A stretch of 64,000 nt of DNA from an uncultured Acidobacteriota bacterium (GTDB taxonomy: Bacteria; Acidobacteriota; Thermoanaerobaculia; Multivoradales; JAHEKO01), in contig CAVQNG010000034.1 in NCBI GenBank assembly GCA_963713825.1, positions 32,001-96,000 of the forward strand. The letters run 5' to 3'. The position numbers and the translations under genes are program-made. The notes beneath the pieces were generated by a model. It did not search any database. It worked only from the letters and a program-made list of their open reading frames with translations, and was not told the origin of the DNA. Shown here piece after piece: positions 2,591-12,715 of the stretch. Every line of letters begins with the position of its first letter. Within the stretch, counting starts at the first letter, position 1.

Positions 2591-4504
2591 GTGATTTCGT
2601 CGGTTACTGGTAGAATCGAGCGCCCCTGCCTCTCTCGAGTGTCCTCAATGGAAGCGAATTCGCGCACTCCCTCGCTAGCTTTCTCGTCGCGTGCCGAGCG
2701 CGGGGCCGAGGAATCCCACCCAACGGCGGGCTTCTTCCATCGCCCTGTCCGACCGGTCAAGCCGAGGCAGAAGGGCTCTATCGAGGTACCTGACCGCTAC
2801 GTCATCCGAGAAGACGAGGCTGGCTCGTATCTGAGTTGCCTCGAGGCTCCGGAGTTGATGGTTCGAGTCGATCGCGATCTTTCCTTCACTGCGAGTGCCG
2901 CCCGCAAGGCGGATGAGGGGACCATATTTCTGGATGGCGTCGCGCAAGGCGAGCCCTTCATGGAACTCGAACGGCGTGTCTATAACCTGGATCATCACGA
3001 GGGTTGTGTCCGACACTTCACGCTGTCGACCTGTGAACAGGCCCTGGTGCTGGTGGCCCGTGGTCTGGATCTGAGGGAGAAGCCCTGGCAGGTGTACGCC
3101 AATGAGCCGGACCTGGATGTCGTACTGGCCGTCTGGGTATTGTGCAACGGCATGCATCTACAGGCCGAGGACTCGGCGATCCGCAATGCGGTGGTTCCCC
3201 TGGTGAGACTCGAAGGCCTGATCGACTCGCACGGCCTCGAGTTGTACGAGCTCTCCGGCTATCCGCGACAGATGGTGGACGAGATCACCGGCAGTCTCGA
3301 GTCGCTGCGGGAAACCGAGCTGAAGCTCAAGACGGATGGCAAGTGGGAGGGAGCCGACCTGCTCAGGTACCTCCGGGATCAGCTGCGCCTGCTAGACCAG
3401 ATGGTGTACCCGGCGGACTTCTTCGAGGCCTTTCGCGGTATCGAGGAGCTCGCGAAGACCGAGCTCACTGACAATAGGATCGCTGTGGTTTGCCGCTGCG
3501 ATTGCGGCATCTACGAGCTGGAGAAGGAGCTGAAGCGTTTGTATGGCAAGCGGCTCGGGATCGTTGGGCTGCAGAAGGGGCCTGGCGTCTACACGCTACG
3601 CCAGGTAGATCCGTTTCTGCCAGTCGATCTCAACGAGGCTTTTCGCAAGCTCAACGTGCTGGACCCTGCCGTCCAGCGCGGCGGCTCGAGCAATCGCTGG
3701 GGTGGCTCGGGGGAGATTGGCGGCTCGCCTCGCAAGACCGGCACCGCCATGAGTCCGGTCGACATCGCCGAGGCAGTGAAGCTGGCCTATCGCCGGCCCG
3801 GACTGTGGGACCGGTTGCGCTCGATTGGGCTCGCAGTGGGCCTCAGCGCGCTTCCCATGGTGGCAGGCTGGCTCGTCGTGATGTGGAATCAAGTGGTTGA
3901 TGAGCCGCTGGGCCTGTTCTCAGACCGCCTGCTGGAGTTCCTCGCGATGTCCAGCGCAGTCGCGATCTGTTGTCTCTTGTTGCTGGGGCGTCGGCGGAAG
4001 CGGCGGGTCTTCGGCCTGCAAGCTCCTGAGGGTAGGGGCTGGACTCTGATGGCTCCGGTCGTCGCTCTGGGCGGCCTGGCTGGAGGGGTCTGGGTCTTCT
4101 TGCAGTCCTGGTTGCAAGCCGGGACGCTGGGCTCTTTCGGGGTGCCACAGCTCCTGGCACTGGTGGGTTTCCCGCTGCTTGCAGAGGTCGTCTTTCGCGG
4201 CGTGGCGCACGGCGTCATGGTGCACGATTTCAGCGTGCAACACGCCCAGGGCCGCTGGTTCGTGTCGTGGCCTGTTGCAATATCCGCGCTGCTGTTTGTC
4301 ATTTGGAGCTTGATCCTCCGACCCCTGGTGATTACGGACCTCTGGTGGCCCGGTCTGTCGTCCTGGATTCTTCCCTTTGGAGCTGCCGTATCCGGCTTGG
4401 CGCTCGGGATGGCAAGAGAGCGTTCGGGCAGCCTGCTCGCTTCTCTTGGCCTGCACTACCTGGCAGTGGCAATCGGTCTGGTTATCGTCTCGATTCTCCG
4501 CTAG
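2591..4504 (+). CDS. Fusion of a DHH-like phosphoesterase domain and a CPBP (Abi/CAAX) family membrane domain; start uncertain (2591, 2648 or later)
   Basis: Soluble part has IFLDG, NLDHHEG, NEPDLD and WGGSGEIGGSP. The C-terminal ~230 aa are multi-TM with AEVVFRG and ERSGSL..LGLH. Confidence 0.7.
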   Translation: MISSVTGRIERPCLSRVSSMEANSRTPSLAFSSRAERGAEESHPTAGFFHRPVRPVKPRQKGSIEVPDRYVIREDEAGSYLSCLEAPELMVRVDRDLSFTASAARKADEGTIFLDGVAQGEPFMELERRVYNLDHHEGCVRHFTLSTCEQALVLVARGLDLREKPWQVYANEPDLDVVLAVWVLCNGMHLQAEDSAIRNAVVPLVRLEGLIDSHGLELYELSGYPRQMVDEITGSLESLRETELKLKTDGKWEGADLLRYLRDQLRLLDQMVYPADFFEAFRGIEELAKTELTDNRIAVVCRCDCGIYELEKELKRLYGKRLGIVGLQKGPGVYTLRQVDPFLPVDLNEAFRKLNVLDPAVQRGGSSNRWGGSGEIGGSPRKTGTAMSPVDIAEAVKLAYRRPGLWDRLRSIGLAVGLSALPMVAGWLVVMWNQVVDEPLGLFSDRLLEFLAMSSAVAICCLLLLGRRRKRRVFGLQAPEGRGWTLMAPVVALGGLAGGVWVFLQSWLQAGTLGSFGVPQLLALVGFPLLAEVVFRGVAHGVMVHDFSVQHAQGRWFVSWPVAISALLFVIWSLILRPLVITDLWWPGLSSWILPFGAAVSGLALGMARERSGSLLASLGLHYLAVAIGLVIVSILR

Positions 4505-4539
4505 AGTCTGCCTCTCGCGGTGGCTCTGGCGGCTCGAGA

Positions 4540-5151
4540 ATGAGCTCCCTACCCATGAAGTCCTATCGGATCAACGAGATTTTCTTCAGCCTGCAGGGTG
4601 AAGGTGCGCGCACGGGACAGCCGAGTCTGTTCTTGCGATTTTCGAAGTGTAACTTGACCTGTAAGGTCGAGACCCATGGTTTCGATTGCGACACGGAGTT
4701 CGAATCTGGCCGGGACCTGACCGTCGATGAGATCCTCGCCGAGCTGAAGGCTCTCACCGCAGAGTGCTCCTGGGTGGTGCTGACTGGCGGAGAGCCAGCT
4801 CTCCAGATCGACCGGGCGTTGATCGACGCGCTGCACGAGGCCGGCTACCAGCTGGCTATCGAGACCAATGGGACCGTCGAGCTGCCGCCGGGCCTGGATT
4901 GGGTCACGGTCAGCCCGAAGGTCGCCGAGCACGCGATTCGACAACGGGTTGCTGACGAGGTGAAATATGTTCGTACATACGGACAGGCCCTTCCCGAAAC
5001 CTCGGTCAAGGCTGAGAAGTTCTGGATTTCTCCAGCCTTCGAGGGTGATCGAGTCGATCCGCGGACACTCGAGTGGTGTGTGCAACTGGTCAAGGACAAT
5101 CCGCACTGGGGACTTTCCCCACAAATGCACAAGTTCTGGGGCCTTCGATAG
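4540..5151 (+). CDS. queE: 7-carboxy-7-deazaguanine synthase QueE (radical SAM); alternative start 4555
   Basis: EIFFSLQGEG, FLRF..CNL, CDT, VLTGGEP, IETNG, VTVSPK and QMHK are QueE signatures. Confidence 0.9.
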   Translation: MSSLPMKSYRINEIFFSLQGEGARTGQPSLFLRFSKCNLTCKVETHGFDCDTEFESGRDLTVDEILAELKALTAECSWVVLTGGEPALQIDRALIDALHEAGYQLAIETNGTVELPPGLDWVTVSPKVAEHAIRQRVADEVKYVRTYGQALPETSVKAEKFWISPAFEGDRVDPRTLEWCVQLVKDNPHWGLSPQMHKFWGLR

Positions 5152-5252
5152 CCAGAGGGGAATGTCTCCATGGCTCCTTTCTTTGGCTAGGTGAGAGTGC
5201 TACCTTTTTGGATAGCCCCGAGCTACCCGTGTGTTTCGGAGATCACTACCCC

Positions 5253-5271
5253 TAATGAGGTTCCTCTCGCA
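5253..5271 (+). promoter_or_regulatory. Possible Fur-box-like operator
   Basis: TAATGAGGTTCCTCTCGCA loosely resembles the AATGAgaatcatTCTCA-type Fur site and lies upstream of a leader ORF plus TonB-dependent receptor. Confidence 0.3.
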
Positions 5272-5324
5272 CCGGTGTTTTCGTAGAGTCTGTTTGGGAA
5301 TGTTGAGTAGGAGCCGCTGAACAC

Positions 5325-5936
5325 ATGTCTTTGATCGCATTGAGAGCACGTCTGTCGGGTCGGCCCCAGGGTGGCAGCCGGACGGACAGATCTGCGCCTT
5401 CGGCTCCGGACGCTCGTCCCCACCTGGTGTTGCGCCGTCTGCTTCCCGTGGCACCGTCGGTGATCGCGGCAGTCATACTGGTCGCCTATCACCTGGTGCT
5501 TCTCTGGCATCGATTGACCGACTTGAGTTTGCTGCAGCCGGCTGTCGCCGTGCGGTGGATCGTCACGGTCGGTCTCTTGATTGGCCTTCGGCGGATGCAG
5601 GTGGCAGGCCTTCCCTTGCTTTGGGGGCGAAGAGCGCTTGCCTTTTGGCTGCTTGTTTTGCTCCTCCATGTGAGCTTCCTTGGACCGCTCTCCACCGAGT
5701 CGTCAGCCTCGGGAGATTGGAGCACCAGTGTCGGTTTGGCACTGGTCCTGCCGGCAGCAACGCCGCTGGTGCTGTTGTCGACGTTTCTGCTGGCCTGCTG
5801 GCTCGCGGCAAGAGCCACAGTAGCGAACTCACGACCACTGCAGTTACTGGCCTTTACGATCGCCAGCGCCGAGCACCCCTCCAGGGGAGGGTGGCTCCCG
5901 TCTCACTCCTCGAGACCCCCTCCAGCTACCTGCTGA
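5325..5936 (+). CDS. Four-TM membrane leader protein with C-terminal RPPP motif (candidate translation-arrest regulator)
   Basis: AGGAG upstream of ATG; 4 hydrophobic segments; H56, H62 and H115 in or near TM helices; ends SHSSRPPPATC*; directly upstream of the TonB-dependent receptor. Confidence 0.7.
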   Translation: MSLIALRARLSGRPQGGSRTDRSAPSAPDARPHLVLRRLLPVAPSVIAAVILVAYHLVLLWHRLTDLSLLQPAVAVRWIVTVGLLIGLRRMQVAGLPLLWGRRALAFWLLVLLLHVSFLGPLSTESSASGDWSTSVGLALVLPAATPLVLLSTFLLACWLAARATVANSRPLQLLAFTIASAEHPSRGGWLPSHSSRPPPATC

Positions 5937-6068
5937 CATCGGTTTACAACGCCGCCGACCCCTCGAAACGGCACGCTCGCTGTGGCTGCCCGAGGGAACC
6001 TGCTCGCACGGGCTCGAGATCCGGGTTCGGGCAAACCGTAGAACGATCAGCAACACTCTTTTGGAAGG
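5918..6068 (+). promoter_or_regulatory. Predicted SD-sequestering mRNA structure between leader ORF and receptor
   Basis: 5931-5947 pairs with 6038-6052, and 5918-5925 (CCCTCCAG) pairs 7/8 with 6061-6068 (TTGGAAGG). Internal hairpin CCCTCG..GGCA / TGCC..CGAGGG at 5960-5996. Confidence 0.55.
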
Positions 6069-6079
6069 AATTTGGAACC

Positions 6080-8419
6080 ATGCTCAGAACGACACAAGCA
6101 GTAGTCTGGATCTGCCTGCTGGCGCTGGTAATCGTGCCGGTCTCGAGTTGGGCGGCTCCGTCGCCTCAGCAGGATGAGGACGCGACAGTCGACCAAGAAA
6201 CAGATGCCGAAACCCCCGAAGGCGAAGGGGATACAGAACCCGCCGACTCTTTCTTCGAGGCCACCACAGTCACGGCCACTGGGACGGAGGTCGACGTATT
6301 CAGCATTGCGACTCCAGTCTCGGTGATTCCCGAGGAAGAGATCGAGAGGAAGCTTCCCGAGAACGCCGTCGATCTCTTCAGGGCACAGCCAGGCGTAGAC
6401 GTCAACGGTGTAGGCCCCAATCAGGCCAGGCCCATTATTCGAGGCCAGCGGGGTCTCAGGGTCCTGTTCATGGAGAACGGGCTGCGTCTGAACAACGCCC
6501 GCCGACAGTCCGATTTCGGCGAAGTTTCGGGTCTCATCGATATGGGTAGCGTCGGCAGTGTCGAGGTCTTGAGAGGCCCTGCTTCCGTCCTCTACGGGAC
6601 CGACGCAATCGGTGGCGTCTTGAATCTGGTGACCAAGTCACCCGCCTATGGAGACGGCAGTTGGACGGCTGGCTCCCTGGGACTCGGGTACCAGGACGCC
6701 AGCGATGGTTTCAGGGCTCAAGGCTATGTTCAGGGCCGGCAGCAGAAGTGGGCCTTCAATCTGGGTGCCACGTACCGTGACTCCTCGGACTACCTGGCAG
6801 CCGGTGGCAGCTATGGCGATATCACGTTGCCGGACGACACCCCGGTCAACGACACCGGACTGCAGGACGACTCCGTCTACGGCTTCCTGTCTTACGACTT
6901 CACCGACAGTCAGCTGTTGTCGTTCCGGTTCAACCGCTACCGGGCTGGCGAGACCGGGTTCGGTTGGGTGGATCCGATTCTCCTGGGTGAGCTGGACAAG
7001 GTCCAGATTACTTATCCTTTCCAGGATTTCGACCGATATACGATGGAGTACAACGCCAGTGCCCTCCAGTCTGCCCTGGCGAACACGGTGAGAGTCAACC
7101 TGCTGTACCAGGAGAATTCGCGGGAGCTCGTCAACAATATCGACGCCTACGACGACGTCGTTTTCGGGCAACCGTTGCCGCCTGGAATGTTCTTCCATGT
7201 GGGCGTGAACACCGAGAACTTCACGGATCTGTCGACCCTGGGCTTGCGGGCCGAGGCGAGCAAGATCCTGGGTGACAATCACCTGCTCTCCTATGGCGGC
7301 GAGTACTACGACGATGACTCGTTCAACACCGACTACTCGTTCACCTACGGTGCTTTGGCGATGCAGATGGACCCGACCCTGCCGCCCGAGGACATCACCC
7401 CGCCCTTCTTCACGGATGAGGACGACATCGCCAACACTCCCAACGCGGAGAACATCGCCTGGGGCCTGTTCGCCCAGGATCAGTTCCTGATCGGCAGCCG
7501 GTTCTCGGGTACCGCCGGTATTCGGTATGCGAATACCGAGACCAAGGCAAAGGAGACCCCAGGCCTGGACACGACGGGCTTGGATTTTTCCGACGACGAC
7601 TTCGTCGGGGCGGTCAGCGGCGTCTATCAGGTAACGAGCAATCTCAATGTCGTCGGCACCGCCGGCACCGCTTTCCGGGCGCCCAATATCGTGGAGAGGC
7701 TCTTCAACGGTCTGACGCCAGAAGGCAGTGGTTATCAGATTCTCAATTCGGATCTGAAGTCCGAGAACAGCACCAACTTCGATCTGGGCATGAAGTACAG
7801 GCGCATGAACGCCGTCTTCGAGCTCATGATCTTCCGCAACGAGATCAAGGACGGCATCGTGCAGGAGTTCCTGAGCGACGAGGAGATTGCCCAGCTGCCG
7901 CCTGATGTGCAAGAGGAGATCGAGGATTCGGGCGCCAGTGTTGTCGTACAGCAGCAGAACGTCTCCAAGCTCCGATACGAGGGAGTCGAGACCGTCATCG
8001 GTTGGCGCGCCAATAATGGAGTCTCTATCGGAGCCAACTACACTTATCTCGATGCCGAGCGGGTCGACACGGGCACTCCGACTGGCGATACCTATAAGAA
8101 CAAATTCAACTTTCACACCCGCTACGATCGCCCCACTGGTAGGTACTGGGTCGAGTATCGCTTGCGTCACAACGGCAGTACCGATTCCGTCAACGATCCC
8201 GATGCGCCGATCCCGGCGGTTGGTTTGACGTTGCCGGCTTTTACCATACACACCCTGAGCGGCGGCGTGGTGCTGTTCGAAAGAGGCAGACAGCAGCACA
8301 CCCTGACCCTGGTGATCGACAACTTCAGCGACGAGCTCTACTCCGAGTTCTCGAACGCCACCTTCTTCCGCCCGCAGTCGAGGCGGAACTTTCTCGTCAA
8401 CTATCGTCTGCGGATCTGA
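6080..8419 (+). CDS. TonB-dependent receptor (heme/hemoglobin-like FRAP subfamily)
   Basis: GGAAGGA SD; signal peptide; TonB-box-like TTVTAT; plug motif VEVLRGPASVLYGTDAIGGVLN; AFRAPN..NSDLKSE; C-terminal beta-strand RNFLVNYRLRI. The ORF-track start at 5555 is over-extended. Confidence 0.93.
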   Translation: MLRTTQAVVWICLLALVIVPVSSWAAPSPQQDEDATVDQETDAETPEGEGDTEPADSFFEATTVTATGTEVDVFSIATPVSVIPEEEIERKLPENAVDLFRAQPGVDVNGVGPNQARPIIRGQRGLRVLFMENGLRLNNARRQSDFGEVSGLIDMGSVGSVEVLRGPASVLYGTDAIGGVLNLVTKSPAYGDGSWTAGSLGLGYQDASDGFRAQGYVQGRQQKWAFNLGATYRDSSDYLAAGGSYGDITLPDDTPVNDTGLQDDSVYGFLSYDFTDSQLLSFRFNRYRAGETGFGWVDPILLGELDKVQITYPFQDFDRYTMEYNASALQSALANTVRVNLLYQENSRELVNNIDAYDDVVFGQPLPPGMFFHVGVNTENFTDLSTLGLRAEASKILGDNHLLSYGGEYYDDDSFNTDYSFTYGALAMQMDPTLPPEDITPPFFTDEDDIANTPNAENIAWGLFAQDQFLIGSRFSGTAGIRYANTETKAKETPGLDTTGLDFSDDDFVGAVSGVYQVTSNLNVVGTAGTAFRAPNIVERLFNGLTPEGSGYQILNSDLKSENSTNFDLGMKYRRMNAVFELMIFRNEIKDGIVQEFLSDEEIAQLPPDVQEEIEDSGASVVVQQQNVSKLRYEGVETVIGWRANNGVSIGANYTYLDAERVDTGTPTGDTYKNKFNFHTRYDRPTGRYWVEYRLRHNGSTDSVNDPDAPIPAVGLTLPAFTIHTLSGGVVLFERGRQQHTLTLVIDNFSDELYSEFSNATFFRPQSRRNFLVNYRLRI

Positions 8420-8440: not shown

Positions 8441-8475
8441 GGCCCCGGAGTCCGCTCGGATTTCGGGGCCTTTTT
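8441..8475 (+). terminator. Intrinsic terminator of the receptor transcript
   Basis: GGCCCCGGAGTCCG-CT-CGGATTTCGGGGCC followed by TTTTT. Confidence 0.85.
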
Positions 8476-8496
8476 CCTTGCCGTCGGAGGGACTGA

Positions 8497-9534
8497 CTAA
8501 GGGAGCTGGCTGTGACGGGGAGGCAGGGCCTCTATTTCTAACCCCGCTATCTCGCGCAGTGCTGCCTCGGTATAACGTGCTGTCATCAGGCCGCGCCATT
8601 GGGCCTTGAAATCGGTGTTGTCCATCGGTGTTGCCAGTTTTCGAGCCTGCTGAGCGACTTCTTCGATTCGCTCCTCGGTCAGCGGGTGGCCGCGCAGGAG
8701 TTCGGAAACTGCCTCCACGGCAACGGGCCGCGATCCAACTGCACCCAGGAAGATCCGGGCGTCAGAGACGACGTTGTTGTCAGTGAACCAGACGGCAGCG
8801 GCTACGGACAGCACGGCAAAATCGATGGAACCACGGCGACGAAGCTTCCAGAAGCTCGACCGACAGTGCTCTTGGTCACTCTCGGCAGGAATCAGCACCT
8901 GCGTCACGATCTCGTCGGAGCGCTTCGCCAGATAGTCGATGCCGTCGTCGCGATACAAGTCGGTGAGGGCCAGGTCCCTTTCGCCCCTGGCCGACAGCAG
9001 GCTCACCCTGGCATCCAGTGCGGCGAGCATGGGGGCTGAATCGGCGGCGGTGTGCGCCCAACAGCGCGAAGAGCTGGGGGCGACCCAACAGACCGTGCCA
9101 TCCTCTTTCATGCAGTAGTCGATGGCTCGGCGCCAATCTTCGGTCTGGTTGTAGTACGTGCAGCGGGTGTCGAGGCAGATGTTTCCACCCAAAGTCCCCA
9201 TTTGGCGCAAGGGAGGCGAGGCTATCGAAGCGACCGCCTGAGCCAGGGCGGGGTAGCGTTGCCGCAATGCCGAATCCCGGACCACGTCCTCGAGCAGGGT
9301 CGTAGCGCCGATCCGAGCCTCGCTGGATGGGTCGATCGCATCGATGCCCGCCATATCCCCGATCGACATGAGGCTGACGACCGTCTCCGGCTTCTGGTGG
9401 CGCCGTTTCATGTTCGGCCAGAGGTCGGTGCCGCCCGCGACAACTCGAGCGCCCGGTCCTTCGGAGGCGAGGATCGTCGCGGCCTCACGAGTCGAGTCCG
9501 GCATGTGGAATCTGAATTGGGGCAAACGGAGCAT
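8497..9534 (-). CDS. FAD-binding subunit, 4-hydroxybenzoyl-CoA reductase beta-like (xanthine dehydrogenase family)
   Basis: VAGGTDL, TLGGN, Cys-rich [4Fe-4S] insertion RC..YC.K.DG..CWVA...RC, KLRRRGSIDF. Confidence 0.88.
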   Translation of the reverse strand: MLRLPQFRFHMPDSTREAATILASEGPGARVVAGGTDLWPNMKRRHQKPETVVSLMSIGDMAGIDAIDPSSEARIGATTLLEDVVRDSALRQRYPALAQAVASIASPPLRQMGTLGGNICLDTRCTYYNQTEDWRRAIDYCMKEDGTVCWVAPSSSRCWAHTAADSAPMLAALDARVSLLSARGERDLALTDLYRDDGIDYLAKRSDEIVTQVLIPAESDQEHCRSSFWKLRRRGSIDFAVLSVAAAVWFTDNNVVSDARIFLGAVGSRPVAVEAVSELLRGHPLTEERIEEVAQQARKLATPMDNTDFKAQWRGLMTARYTEAALREIAGLEIEALPPRHSQLP

Positions 9535-9578
9535 TGCGGTTCCTGTTCACTCCTCGAAGACTCGGAGCGCGAGTCGAG

Positions 9579-12131
9579 TCATTTGGTGGTCAGAGCTCCA
9601 TCCTTCCGCTTCAGGGCTTCGGTGCGGTCCGACATAGTGCCCGTGTCACCACGCATCTTGGAAGAGCGCTTCCGCTTGGGATCATTGCTAGCCCTGCCAT
9701 CTCCACCCTCGTCCGGCGTCGGCACGAGGAGCGTCTCCCCGAAGTTCACACGAGGGAAGCCTGTCGGGCCGAATCGAGCTTCTTCACCTCTTTCACCTGC
9801 CAGCAAGGCCTGGTGGATCATGTGGGGCTGGATCGGCACCTGATCGATGCGGACGCCGACCGCGTCGTGGATTGCGTTGGCCAGTGCCGGGGGTATGGGA
9901 AGTAGCGGCCCCTGACCTACCTCCTTGGCACCGAAGGGACCCTCCGGATCTGGATCCTCGATCAGGTAGCTGGTCACCTCGGGCATATCGAGGCAGGTCG
10001 GGCTTTTGTATTCGAGCATTGAAGGCATCTTGTGCACGAGAGCGTCAGACATGTGCCTTGGCAGGCGACGGAATGCCTGTTCCTCCATCATGGCCTCTCC
10101 CAGACCCATGTAGACGGAACCCTCGATCTGACCCAGGACCAGTGTCGGGTTGATGGCCCGGCCGATGTCGTGGGCCAGCCAGACGTGAACGGGGCGATAG
10201 ATGCCGCTCGTCGGGTCCACTTCCACCTCGATGACAGCGGCCGAGTAGGAGTAGGTGGGCGAAGGCCCGACCCCGGCGCCGCGGTATTTGCCCGGCGAGC
10301 GGGGCGGAATGTACGAGCCGACCGTGCCGAGCGTTCCGAATCGAGCCTCGGTCGTGATGACCGAATCCTCGAAGCTCAGGCCGCCCTCCGGATGCGCCGC
10401 GTCGAAGACCCGCCGGTTGGCGAAAACCAGATTCTCAGGTGCCGTCTCGAGGCGCTCGGCAACGGCTGTCGCGATGAGCTCACGAGCCCGCATTGCCGCC
10501 TGGACTGCGGCGTTGCCAGCCATGAGGGTTACCCTGGAGGAGTAGCTACCCAGGTCGACAGGTGTGAGGTCCGTGTCTGCCACGCAGAGTCGGATGTCCT
10601 TCAAATCCACGCCCAAGACATCGGCCACGAGTGCGGCCAATACCGAATCGGAACCCTGCCCGATTTCGGTCTCGCCACAGAACAGCGCGATGCCGCCAGA
10701 GCGGTCGAGCTTGAGCTGGACTCCCGACTGCGGGAGATGATTCCAGTAGATGGGTAGACCGGCGCCGCACATGTAGGCGCCACACGCCAATCCGAGACCA
10801 CGGCCCTCTGGTAACTTGCCTCGGCGTTGGCGCCATCCACTTCCTTCGACGACCGCTTCGATGCAGCGCCGCAAAGCGATCGTGCCCAAGCGCAGCCAGT
10901 TGGCGGTCACCTGGCCCGGGGAAGCGAGATTGGCCAGTCTCAGGTCTGCCGGATCGAGGTCCAGCTTCTCTGCCGCCTTGTCCAGATGAACCTCGAATGC
11001 AAAGCGCGGTTGCGGCGTTCCATGGCCTCGCTTGGGACCGCAGGGTGGCTTGTTGGTGAAACAGCGCACACCGTCGAATTGATAGCGCGGCAGCGAGTAA
11101 GTTGCCGTCTGCAGAGCTCCCGTGTAGTACGTGGAAGCCACTCCGTAGCTGCCGTAGGCGCCGCCGTCGAGAGCGGTCTGGAGGTGCTGGGCCGTGATCG
11201 CCCCCTCTTTCGAGAAGCCGGTTCGGATCTTCATCGCCACCGGATGGCGCCCCCGGTGGCAATAGAAGACCTCCTCGCGATTGAGGACTATCTTGGCCGG
11301 CCTGCCGAGCTCGAGGGCCATCTTCGCGGCGACGATCTCGTGGTTGAAGGGATCGCTCTTGCCGCCGAATCCACCCCCGTTGGGGCAAGCGATGACTCGG
11401 ATCCGGGAGGCGGGAAGTCCCAAGACCCGGGTGAGAGCACGGTGCAGATAGTGGGGTGTCTGAGTCGAAGAGTAGATGGTGACCCGGTCGACATCTTCGG
11501 GGACCGCTACCGTAGCGTGCTGCTCTAGCGCCAGATGAGTGTTGCCTTCGTAGAAGAATTGATCGTCGAGAATCAGGTCGGCATTGTCGAAGCCGGTCTG
11601 GAGGTCGCCAAATCGCAGAGACACGCTCTTGTGGACGTTGCCCTCAGAGCCGTAGTCGTGAATGCGAGGCTCGGGAGTGCCGAGGGCTTCTTCGACCGAA
11701 GCGATGGTTGGTAGCGGCTCGTATTCGACCTCGACGCAGAGGGCGGCCTCGTAGGCCGCGTCTTCGGAAGTCGCTGCCACCGCTGCGACGGGATCGCCGA
11801 CGAATCGCACACGGTCGAGACAGAGAGCGTGCTCGTCCTGGGAAACCGGCAGGATGCCGAAAGTCTCTGGCATGTCGGAGCCGACAAGGCTGCCGAGATA
11901 CCCCGCCACCTTCTCGGCCTGCCCGAAGTCGATTGACGAGATCTTGCCGTGGGGAATCGTGGATCGCACCAGACGGAGGTGACACATCCGTGGGAACTCG
12001 AGGTCATCGGCAAACCGAGTCACGCCACTGACCTTGTCCCGACCATCGACGCGGCGGAACGGCCTGCCGATGTAACGACCCGATGTGGGATCGAAGGGAC
12101 CGGCCTCGTGGCGAGTTTTGGATTCACCCAT
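9579..12131 (-). CDS. Molybdopterin-binding subunit, 4-hydroxybenzoyl-CoA reductase alpha-like
   Basis: RVDG..KVSG..RFADD, GGGFGGK, KRGHG, EIGQG, GSYSSR, GQIEG, GAKEVGQ. ATG 12131 is preferred over 12410. Confidence 0.88.
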   Translation of the reverse strand: MGESKTRHEAGPFDPTSGRYIGRPFRRVDGRDKVSGVTRFADDLEFPRMCHLRLVRSTIPHGKISSIDFGQAEKVAGYLGSLVGSDMPETFGILPVSQDEHALCLDRVRFVGDPVAAVAATSEDAAYEAALCVEVEYEPLPTIASVEEALGTPEPRIHDYGSEGNVHKSVSLRFGDLQTGFDNADLILDDQFFYEGNTHLALEQHATVAVPEDVDRVTIYSSTQTPHYLHRALTRVLGLPASRIRVIACPNGGGFGGKSDPFNHEIVAAKMALELGRPAKIVLNREEVFYCHRGRHPVAMKIRTGFSKEGAITAQHLQTALDGGAYGSYGVASTYYTGALQTATYSLPRYQFDGVRCFTNKPPCGPKRGHGTPQPRFAFEVHLDKAAEKLDLDPADLRLANLASPGQVTANWLRLGTIALRRCIEAVVEGSGWRQRRGKLPEGRGLGLACGAYMCGAGLPIYWNHLPQSGVQLKLDRSGGIALFCGETEIGQGSDSVLAALVADVLGVDLKDIRLCVADTDLTPVDLGSYSSRVTLMAGNAAVQAAMRARELIATAVAERLETAPENLVFANRRVFDAAHPEGGLSFEDSVITTEARFGTLGTVGSYIPPRSPGKYRGAGVGPSPTYSYSAAVIEVEVDPTSGIYRPVHVWLAHDIGRAINPTLVLGQIEGSVYMGLGEAMMEEQAFRRLPRHMSDALVHKMPSMLEYKSPTCLDMPEVTSYLIEDPDPEGPFGAKEVGQGPLLPIPPALANAIHDAVGVRIDQVPIQPHMIHQALLAGERGEEARFGPTGFPRVNFGETLLVPTPDEGGDGRASNDPKRKRSSKMRGDTGTMSDRTEALKRKDGALTTK

Positions 12132-12172
12132 CGTTCTGGTCCAGGTTCTCTTGAGTTTCTCGTCCAGACAAT

Positions 12173-12715
12173 TCAGCCGGCATCGGAGGAGGGAGGAGGA
12201 GTGCCATGGAGGGTTTCGGTCGAGTAGGGGCGCTCTTCGCCACGCATTCGAGCGGCAGCCACCTCGACGGCCTGGACGATCTTGTGGTACCCGGTACAGC
12301 GACAGAGATTCCCGGACAGTGCTTCTTCGATCTGATTTCTGGATGGCGTCTGTTCGTCCTGCAGAAGCGCGATCGATGTCATGAGGATGCCTGGGGTGCA
12401 ATAGCCACACTGCGCGGCATTGAGATCGGCCATGGCGGTCTGCAGCGGGTGAAGCTCATTGGATTCCTGCAAGCCCTCGACGGTCTGGACGTTCTTGCCC
12501 GCCAACTGGGCGGCCAGAAGCAGGCAAGAGAGAATCGGTCGACCGTCCACCAGTACCGTGCAGGCCCCACACTCGCCCAACTCGCATCCGTGCTTGGTCC
12601 CAGTGAGTCGAAGCTGCTCGCGCAAGACCTCGAGCAAGGTGTGATGGGTCGGAAAGGAGAGGGTCCTGGTCTCACCGTTGACGGTCAGCTCGAGGGATGT
12701 GATTTGCTCCGACAT
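12173..12715 (-). CDS. 2x[2Fe-2S] subunit (HcrC/CoxS-like)
   Basis: GTKHGCELGECGACTV, QCGYCTPG, NLCRCTGY. Confidence 0.93.
   Translation of the reverse strand: MSEQITSLELTVNGETRTLSFPTHHTLLEVLREQLRLTGTKHGCELGECGACTVLVDGRPILSCLLLAAQLAGKNVQTVEGLQESNELHPLQTAMADLNAAQCGYCTPGILMTSIALLQDEQTPSRNQIEEALSGNLCRCTGYHKIVQAVEVAAARMRGEERPYSTETLHGTPPPSSDAG

Follow-up and report, generated by a model that had tools for sequence, protein, structure and literature searches.

The window analysed here (the whole stretch of 64,000 nucleotides (nt), C34:32001-96000 of genome G000, from an uncultured member of the Acidobacteriota) contains an open reading frame (ORF) at 5325-5936, directly upstream of a gene for a TonB-dependent receptor (TBDR), which we regard as probably a heme-responsive arrest leader of the RAPP type that would work like the leader CruR of Bordetella pertussis while being unrelated to it. 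A wider proposal, for which we see almost as much in favour as against, is that the locus represents the first nascent-chain heme sensor, in which two transmembrane histidines would ligate heme on the ribosome, release an RPPP/RAPP arrest and so set the expression of uptake receptors and of the hemA operon across Acidobacteriota. The features that bear on both proposals are as follows.

5325-5936, + strand: leader ORF of 203 amino acids (aa), candidate four-helix inner-membrane protein with a C-terminal arrest motif (translation, homologs)
5490-5492, + strand: codon of H56 in helix 1, proposed ligand residue (invariant in 134/134 and 61/61 sequences)
5667-5669, + strand: codon of H115 in helix 3, at the end of a VLLLH motif, proposed ligand residue (invariant in 134/134 and 61/61 sequences)
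5730-5813, + strand: helix 4, the last hydrophobic segment (residues 136-163), which would sit just outside the exit tunnel with the ribosome at RPPP (hydropathy, AlphaFold2)
5889-5924, + strand: candidate arrest module G189-W-L-P-S-H-S-S-R-P-P-P200 (position-wise frequencies)
5913-5924, + strand: codons of R197-P198-P199-P200, proposed stall site, by analogy with R-P-P in the P site and Pro-tRNA in the A site (invariant R197, P199 and P200; excerpts of PMC12992588)
6080-8419, + strand: TBDR of 779 aa with a signal peptide, nearest to heme/hemoglobin receptor families (domains, family scores)

Four hydrophobic stretches were evident in the leader by hydropathy (residues 38-64, 72-88, 102-124 and 135-164), in agreement with the helices of an AlphaFold2 model made with 134 sequences (42-66, 72-93, 102-117 and 133-167), in which the region of helices 1-3 reached predicted local distance difference test (pLDDT) values of 84-93. 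These results bear out the polytopic 203-aa ORF with four transmembrane helices described in an earlier note on this DNA, whose coordinates all proved correct: H56, H62 and H115 lie in or beside hydrophobic stretches, and the RPPP codons at 5913-5924 stand three residues ahead of the stop (5934-5936, giving a tail of A-T-C behind the motif) and 155 nt ahead of the receptor ATG. Arginines are clustered in the N-terminal tail (eight residues), loop 2 and the C-terminal tail, and acidic residues in loops 1 and 3; because the positive charges fall in these segments, the protein fits an N-in/C-in topology with four helices. The leader thus has the membrane helices of RAPP-type arrest peptides, four in number and with a positive-inside charge pattern, and it has their R-[A/G]-P-P core, although the window motif is the Pro variant rather than the canonical Ala or Gly. 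The only cysteines are C158 and C203, so that the absence of a CxxC motif noted earlier holds. The start of the protein (MSLIALRA...) is kept in same-genus homologs.

The leader is a real conserved gene and belongs to a large unnamed family of Acidobacteriota. A six-frame search matched it in 36 of 61 related genomes with open frames, a word-based protein search found 65 relatives, none of them with a Pfam domain or an informative name, and a profile search of 1.84 billion representatives gave 624 clusters at E<=1e-3, of which 537 were left at E<=1e-10 (the clusters being representatives at 50% identity). Nearly all of these clusters are 150-220 aa long, with the match running to the last profile position. 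No family match to the leader protein was found in Pfam or NCBIfam, its neighbours in the ESM Atlas were unnamed Acidobacteriota clusters only, and no DUF2946 match was found at E<=1; together with the missing CxxC, the last result sustains the earlier view of a distinct family, separate from CruR. Named records of the family come from Acidobacteriota of the class Thermoanaerobaculia. In a phylum-wide sample the leader occurred in 14 of 301 genomes, including classes other than Thermoanaerobaculia, and in a second order it occurred in 38 of 151. Conservation at the protein level extends across orders down to approximately 25-30% identity, with frames intact.

Among 33 relatives the invariant columns were H56, R63, W78, R102, V111-H115, R197, P199 and P200, and in 134 representatives spanning 22-75% identity to the window leader only H56, H115, R197, P199 and P200 were left. 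In 61 complete leaders, drawn from loci with receptor genes and from loci with heme-synthesis genes downstream, H56, W78, G95, W108, H115, P199 and P200 were present in every sequence (61/61) and R197 in 60. The earlier prediction of conserved histidines therefore stands for H56 and H115 and falls for H62, which is mostly Gln in relatives. Counted from the cytoplasmic ends of their helices, H56 stands about 13 residues along helix 1 and H115 about 11 along helix 3, so that the two would be placed at a similar depth toward the outer leaflet, where they may bind one common ligand.

Conservation of the C-terminal motif, a further expectation of the earlier note, was seen in two counts. Of 205 family proteins, 198 had R-x-P-P among their 20 C-terminal residues (RPPP 154, RAPP 35, RGPP 8 and RQPP 1), the other seven being four apparent fragments, two LPPP proteins and one other, and in a second count it was present in 262 of 271 members. 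Position-wise frequencies over 262 proteins were 66% for G at -8, 61% for L at -3 and 100% for both the R and the PP, with P, A and G making up 78, 18 and 3%, respectively, of motif position 2. The family consensus of the candidate module is G-[F/W/L]-L-P-x-L-[A/S]-[S/P]-R-[P/A/G]-P-P, that is, with an aromatic residue or Leu at -7 and Ala/Ser followed by Ser/Pro directly before the Arg. Between the motif and the stop there are 1-14 residues, most commonly one. The linker from the last hydrophobic segment to the Arg has a median length of 33 residues (interquartile range 31-37 in 198 proteins) and is about 33 residues in the window leader, close to the 35 or so, about one exit-tunnel length, given in the earlier note; it is kept in length and not conserved in sequence. 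As a background, R-[A/P/G]-P-P near the end was found in 14 of 6228 crude ORFs of the window genome, most of which look spurious and none of which resembles the leader.

The variation within the motif was compared with published arrest peptides, the papers being cited throughout from the parts of their text that were accessible. Stalling on ApdA, ApdP and ApcA takes place when the third RAPP codon is in the P site, and the Arg is irreplaceable; at position 2 a change from Ala to Gly is fully permissive and changes to Pro, Ser or Asp are partly so, with Ala to Pro in ApdP nearly equal to wild type in B. subtilis (PMC12992588). Because ApdA and ApdP accept Gly and Pro, the P/A/G variation of the leader family corresponds exactly to the tolerated set (PMC12992588). 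The same survey describes the ApdA, ApdP and ApcA arrests as not released by EF-P, and RAPP-like motifs as strongly avoided in proteomes and enriched toward the C-terminal ends of small proteins, secreted or membrane-bound, whose genes lie 5' of others, TBDR genes included (PMC12992588). RPPP itself is the strongest XPPP stall in Escherichia coli without EF-P and is under-represented there (PMC4176338).

The genes downstream of the leader were of two kinds. In loci from named genomes the receptor followed on the same strand in 20 of 20, about half of them having an additional gene for an unnamed membrane protein of ~250 aa between leader and receptor. Over 71 distinct loci the gene next to the leader was the receptor in 39, the membrane protein followed by the receptor in 15, glutamyl-tRNA reductase (HemA) in 12 and a CcsB-like protein followed by HemA in five, with no other arrangement, giving 54 receptor-type and 17 heme-synthesis-type loci; linkage of homologs to a downstream TonB receptor, as the earlier note had foreseen, was thus seen in all 20 named-genome loci and in 54 of 71 overall. 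The comparative checks that the note had put forward as possible grounds for refutation were all made, and none went against its idea. The leader stood directly 5' of its candidate target on the same strand in 71/71 loci, with median gaps of 110 and 156 nt. Heme-synthesis loci encode HemA, porphobilinogen deaminase (HemC), a class-III aminotransferase in the HemL position and the CcsB-like membrane protein. In distant lineages the leader is followed by heme-synthesis genes or by a receptor of another clade, which is 25-31% identical to the window receptor and carries a CarboxypepD_reg domain.

The usual motif differs between the two contexts, being RAPP before heme-synthesis genes and RPPP before receptor genes. 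Leaders linked to heme synthesis comprised 11 RAPP, five RPPP and one RGPP, and receptor-linked leaders within a set of 66 loci comprised 45 RPPP, two RAPP, one LPPP and one without the motif (probably a frameshift), with RPPP in all of five further receptor-linked loci. One genome, G430, has two leaders, the first before hemA and the second before the membrane protein and receptor. In a quick tree of 61 leaders the context label requires at least two changes, and the well-supported branches are compatible with one origin. Since the same leader precedes hemA operons in relatives, one type of sensor would govern both heme uptake and heme synthesis.

Some properties of the leader would also suit an ordinary heme-handling membrane protein, for instance a heme chaperone, a small b-type cytochrome or an accessory of transport, in which R-x-P-P provides a binding site or causes a harmless pause: the family, with its well-conserved helix core and a length of 150-210 aa, is large for a leader, helices 1-3 are modelled with good pLDDT, and the co-located unnamed membrane protein is a possible partner. 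We consider this explanation unlikely. Beyond the two histidines the invariant residues are R, P and P only, in a motif that varies as an arrest core does and is always near the stop, and the linker before it is kept in length and not in sequence. RAPP-like motifs are also avoided in ordinary proteins (PMC12992588), in line with the 14 of 6228 crude ORFs counted here, and outer-membrane uptake and cytoplasmic synthesis have no common enzymatic step in which a shared membrane protein could take part.

The window receptor showed the Plug (PF07715, 1.2e-21) and TonB_dep_Rec_b-barrel (PF00593, 8.5e-39) domains and a signal-like N-terminus in translation, as expected of the TBDR superfamily. Scored against 30 families it was best matched by TIGR01785 TonB-hemin (218.7 bits, under the curated cut-off of 316.85) and TIGR01786 (191.8 bits, under the cut-off of 323.75), with 96.9 bits for B12 and 36.3 bits for copper receptors. 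Both leader-linked receptor clades had their best score with heme/hemoglobin TBDR models, in each case below the cut-offs.

The window genome (96.4% complete, 0.27% contamination) gave no match to five heme-synthesis families (GluTR_N, Porphobil_deam, ALAD, Ferrochelatase and URO-D), and carries two COX1 genes, along with a weak match for cytochrome bd. As the five families are missing and COX1 genes are present, the organism appears to need heme that it cannot make, which suggests heme (tetrapyrrole) auxotrophy. Leader and GluTR_N (hemA) were counted against each other by hand in two orders. Among the 61 related genomes, 33 had the leader and no GluTR_N, three had both (G035, G050 and G056), 21 had GluTR_N and no leader (one of them, G006, flagged as unpublished) and four had neither (G005, G009, G018 and G033, 70-96% complete). 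In the second order, 14 of the 22 genomes with receptor-linked leaders only had no GluTR_N match, two had a weak partial and six a clear match; among genomes without the leader the match was lacking in 13 of 113. Leader-TBDR cassettes are thus enriched in genomes without hemA, and the pattern recurs in two orders. As an observation on the wider group, GluTR_N was missing in 32 of 36 genomes of the window's family within Thermoanaerobaculia, suggesting that auxotrophy is widespread there. On these genomic grounds, namely that 17 of 71 loci precede hemA operons and that genomes with the TBDR-type cassette tend to lack glutamyl-tRNA reductase, heme is the most likely ligand, in preference to a generic metal.

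A related explanation keeps the arrest leader and changes its ligand, the histidine pair sensing iron or another metal, protoporphyrin or another tetrapyrrole (e.g. a cobamide) and the receptor importing that compound. A pair of histidines can coordinate metal ions, copper is the presumed signal of other RAPP leaders (PMC9426467; PMC12992588), the receptor scores fall short of the heme-family cut-offs with CirA nearest by sequence, and loss of hemA, hemB and hemC also abolishes the synthesis of cobamide and siroheme. This explanation nevertheless seems rather improbable to us, as a shortage of iron should raise uptake and lower heme synthesis, whereas one sensor type heads both kinds of operon, and hemA, hemC and hemL lie downstream in 17 loci. 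Furthermore, the best receptor models are for heme/hemoglobin rather than B12 or copper, no cobalamin riboswitch or other Rfam family was found at the locus, and the leader has no Cys or Met ligand motifs.

It was also considered that the leader might be a monitoring substrate of the SecM/MifM type that reports the insertion capacity of Sec or YidC, since the ~33-residue distance from helix to motif would suit force release by membrane insertion and ApdA and ApdP precede sec genes (PMC7897499); this is highly improbable given that a sec or yidC gene was next downstream in 0 of 71 loci and that the invariant histidine pair would have no role. A chance open frame in GC-rich DNA, to which a third-position GC below that of the neighbours and overlapping antisense ORFs might point, is a negligible prospect and was ruled out by the homolog searches (36 of 61 related genomes; 624 clusters), with the protein conserved across orders in intact frames.

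The remaining features of the unit concern transcription, the spacer and the output step.

5190-5228, + strand: conserved block 5' of the leader, GCTACC ... GGATAGC ... GCTACCC (near-invariant in five same-genus genomes aligned over the 200 nt that lead up to the start codon)
5310-5313, + strand: likely Shine-Dalgarno (SD) sequence of the leader, GGAG, 11 nt 5' of the ATG (read from the sequence)
5770-6030, + strand: C-rich, G-poor stretch over the leader 3' end and the first part of the spacer, candidate Rho loading site (base composition)
5937-6079, + strand: 143-nt spacer between the two genes, well preserved among same-genus genomes; neither an Rfam family nor an intrinsic terminator was found in it
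6063-6069, + strand: receptor SD, GGAAGGA, which pairs with the Pro codons (CCCUCCAG) in the minimum-energy fold (folding)
8441-8480, + strand: hairpin (13 pairs) and T run resembling an intrinsic terminator, where the two-gene unit probably ends (terminator scan)

In the conserved block the words form a partial inverted and direct repeat, so that the block may be a promoter or operator and provide a second, transcriptional layer of control; a scan of the region 5' of the leader found no sigma-70-like promoter. An Rfam search of 4900-6400 found no riboswitch or other RNA family at E<=1, and there was no intrinsic terminator between the leader and the receptor gene, the sole good one lying 3' of the receptor gene. 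RNA-library contigs from four metatranscriptome libraries of two studies covered 5040-5470, 5313-5662, 5693-5922 and several parts of the receptor gene; as these are low-depth contigs, from which strand, ends and levels are not readable, they give a weak indication that the leader and receptor are transcribed. The 230-nt contig 5693-5922 (library X4, record 16), identical to the window, ends at 5922 in the Pro codons, which as a single low-depth end is no evidence of a transcript end.

Two routes from a stalled ribosome to receptor expression were compared. At 5900-5977 the sequence has 44% C and 19% G, an excess reached by 0.04% of + strand windows of the 64 kb and by 0.8% on either strand, and in each of 65 loci, receptor-linked and heme-synthesis-linked alike, C exceeded G between -20 and +40 of the Arg codon; a rho gene is encoded in the window genome. 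With regard to the second route, a consensus fold of four same-genus spacers paired the arrest region with the receptor SD, with two compensatory pairs, and in same-genus relatives a U/C-rich run just 5' of the Arg codon pairs with the receptor SD. Protection from Rho is favoured over SD opening as the output step because of the analogy with CruR, and sequestration of the SD is kept as an alternative because the family-wide duplex test, given below, was mixed.

In the proposed mechanism the leader would act both as a cis-acting regulatory leader and as a small polytopic inner-membrane sensor. The ribosome would arrest at R197-P-P-P200 in the manner of RAPP arrest peptides, at which point helix 4 would be just out of the exit tunnel and helices 1-3 already in the membrane. 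The stalled ribosome, lying on the C-rich, G-poor stretch, would keep the receptor gene expressed, either by blocking Rho loading or by freeing the receptor SD. When heme is available it would be ligated by the two histidines of the nascent bundle, and the packing or insertion of helix 4 would pull on the chain and release the arrest, upon which the ribosome would terminate three codons further on and receptor expression would drop.

Several points weigh against a heme-responsive arrest leader at this locus. Stalling, heme binding and regulation are inferred here, as are the identity of the ligand (heme), the sign of the control, the release by force and the part played by Rho. Stalls at PPP are normally relieved by EF-P, and efp is encoded in the window genome. 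The structure model is only moderate (mean pLDDT 73.6) and in structure comparison resembles no known heme-binding fold: a first model (pLDDT 63.4) had no PDB match at E<=0.001, and the best fold match of the better model (Z 7.2 over 48 residues) was a generic helix hairpin, which is uninformative as to the fold. Third-position GC of the leader is 0.69, compared with 0.71-0.77 in its neighbours. On the side of the output step, the spacer fold is no more stable than shuffles (z = 0.26); Pro codons contribute to the C excess, which in motif-free windows of receptor-linked loci is +10% upstream and only +4% downstream; the stall footprint is the best partner of the SD in four of 21 loci, with z < -1 in nine of 21 and a mean z of -0.69; and no RNA contig bridges the spacer, none spanning 5923-6043. 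As for heme, the receptor lies under both curated cut-offs, and among solved chains CirA, a catecholate receptor, ranks nearest to it by sequence and PhuR third. The link to absence of hemA is not absolute, clear hemA being present in three of 36 and six of 22 leader-bearing genomes, and the counts overstate independence because the genomes are related to each other. Finally, the imported compound could be another tetrapyrrole, since a genome without hemA, hemB and hemC makes none.

The unnamed membrane protein of ~250 aa (e.g. L028:2929-3681, L024:6811-7557 and L058:5839-6549; also in L026, L029, L033 and L035) is a multi-helix protein with the conserved motifs LHxxVLHLP... and LHLLWWGIG..., and sits between leader and receptor or behind the receptor. 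It had no significant match in Pfam or NCBIfam, and its nearest Atlas clusters are unnamed and from Actinomycetota and Chloroflexota. In four loci no stop separates its frame from the receptor frame, and the receptor signal peptide would therefore be internal to the resulting ORFs of 1004-1126 aa. The gene is absent from the window genome and present in the same-genus genome G001. Two irregular loci were also seen. In L012 (G050), ~117-360 nt past the leader stop, the signal-peptide part and the mature part of the receptor are in different frames, through either a frameshift or an assembly error. L008 / L027 (G025) holds the one complete family member that is without any R-x-P-P; its C-terminal 60 residues are unrelated to the family, with the receptor still next, which suggests that this leader is frameshifted.

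Around the unit, within 2591-5151 and 8497-12410, the window encodes a 637-aa protein with a C-terminal CAAX-protease-like domain and a radical-SAM QueE-like protein (both by Pfam), and two large genes on the - strand which, by the look of the sequence, may encode subunits of a molybdenum hydroxylase of the xanthine or CO dehydrogenase type. Since the QueE-like, CAAX-protease-like and dehydrogenase genes are common to only 7-8 of 20 loci, they are not considered part of the unit. Outside the window, contig C3 of G000 (435942-436505, - strand) encodes an exported ankyrin-repeat protein of 187 aa ending in ...MLRAPPPPVEKP, with RAPP 10 residues from the stop and a gene for a 695-aa exported protein ~120 nt further 3'; it may be another arrest-type leader or carry a chance motif.

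If the wider proposal is true, control of heme homeostasis in these bacteria would lie with a ribosome in the act of translation, and not with a riboswitch, a two-component system or a transcription factor. Recognition of arrest peptides that sense small molecules through a domain, folded or inserted in the membrane, is only beginning; CruR with copper (2022) is the one worked example (PMC9426467), and in the accessible text of the 2025 RAPP/RGPP survey most ligands were left unknown (PMC12992588). The present family offers a testable case, with two invariant histidines, one invariant arrest core, a fixed helix-to-core distance and two alternative target operons that point to heme. Confirmation would place heme among the signals that nascent chains read, would explain the regulation of hemA and of heme scavenging in a large and poorly studied phylum, and would make the receptor and the unnamed membrane protein candidates for heme import in organisms apparently unable to make heme.

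With respect to novelty, which the earlier note had claimed for the switch as a whole, the heme link, the control of hemA and the RPPP core were not found in the literature searched, whereas RAPP/RGPP upstream ORFs (uORFs) before TBDR genes and four-helix RAPP peptides were already published in 2022-2025 (PMC9426467, PMC12992588, as far as their accessible text goes). Neither a heme-responsive arrest leader nor the present family was found in that literature; the supplementary uORF lists of PMC12992588 may include the 43 RAPP/RGPP members of the family. The survey extracted RAPP and RGPP ORFs, and the word RPPP does not occur in the accessible text of the paper (PMC12992588). Because only RAPP/RGPP ORFs were extracted, most of the leader family (154 of 205) would be missed by it; motif searches confined to RAPP/RGPP miss families in which RPPP is the usual core.

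Compared with known systems, the leader shares with ApdA, ApdP, ApcA and the Streptomyces lividans set a C-terminal core of the R-[A/G]-P-P type, an N-terminal localisation signal and a position 5' of the regulated gene (excerpts of PMC7897499, PMC10951233 and PMC12992588), and some S. lividans members likewise have four predicted helices and a conserved His (PMC12992588). It differs from these in its heme-related downstream genes, theirs being sec, yidC, copper and thioredoxin genes, and the TBDR-linked uORFs of the survey almost all have signal peptides (PMC12992588). With SecM, whose core RAGP is related to RAPP (PMC12992588), and with MifM and VemP it has in common the proposed release of arrest by a pulling force on a membrane-engaged nascent chain; unlike the leader, with its invariant ligand-type histidine pair and heme genes, these report machinery activity before sec or yidC genes. 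The receptor resembles the heme/hemoglobin TBDRs TIGR01785, TIGR01786, PhuR and ShuA, which are the best-scoring families of both leader-linked receptor clades, and differs from TIGR01785/TIGR01786 members in scoring below the curated cut-offs.

The closest parallel is CruR, a DUF2946 protein of Bordetella pertussis with CxxC and RAPP motifs that is encoded by a copper-responsive uORF before the TBDR gene bfrG (PMC9426467). There the RAPP stall keeps Rho off a C-rich site so that bfrG is transcribed, copper relieves the stall through CxxC so that Rho terminates, and the spacing from CxxC to RAPP matters (PMC9426467, accessible text). Like CruR, the present leader is a protein-coding leader directly 5' of a TBDR gene, with a C-terminal R-x-P-P a few residues ahead of the stop, a spacer of ~140-160 nt, a stretch with C in excess of G across the leader 3' end and the spacer, and a putative ligand-binding motif whose distance to the arrest motif is fixed. 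Unlike CruR, it is not matched by DUF2946, has two invariant histidines in place of a CxxC ~45 residues before RAPP, and has four membrane helices rather than an exported domain with a signal peptide. Its core is mostly RPPP and that of CruR RAPP; its family is linked to operons for heme uptake and heme synthesis and CruR to copper genes; and it occurs in Acidobacteriota, whereas CruR is found mainly in Proteobacteria.

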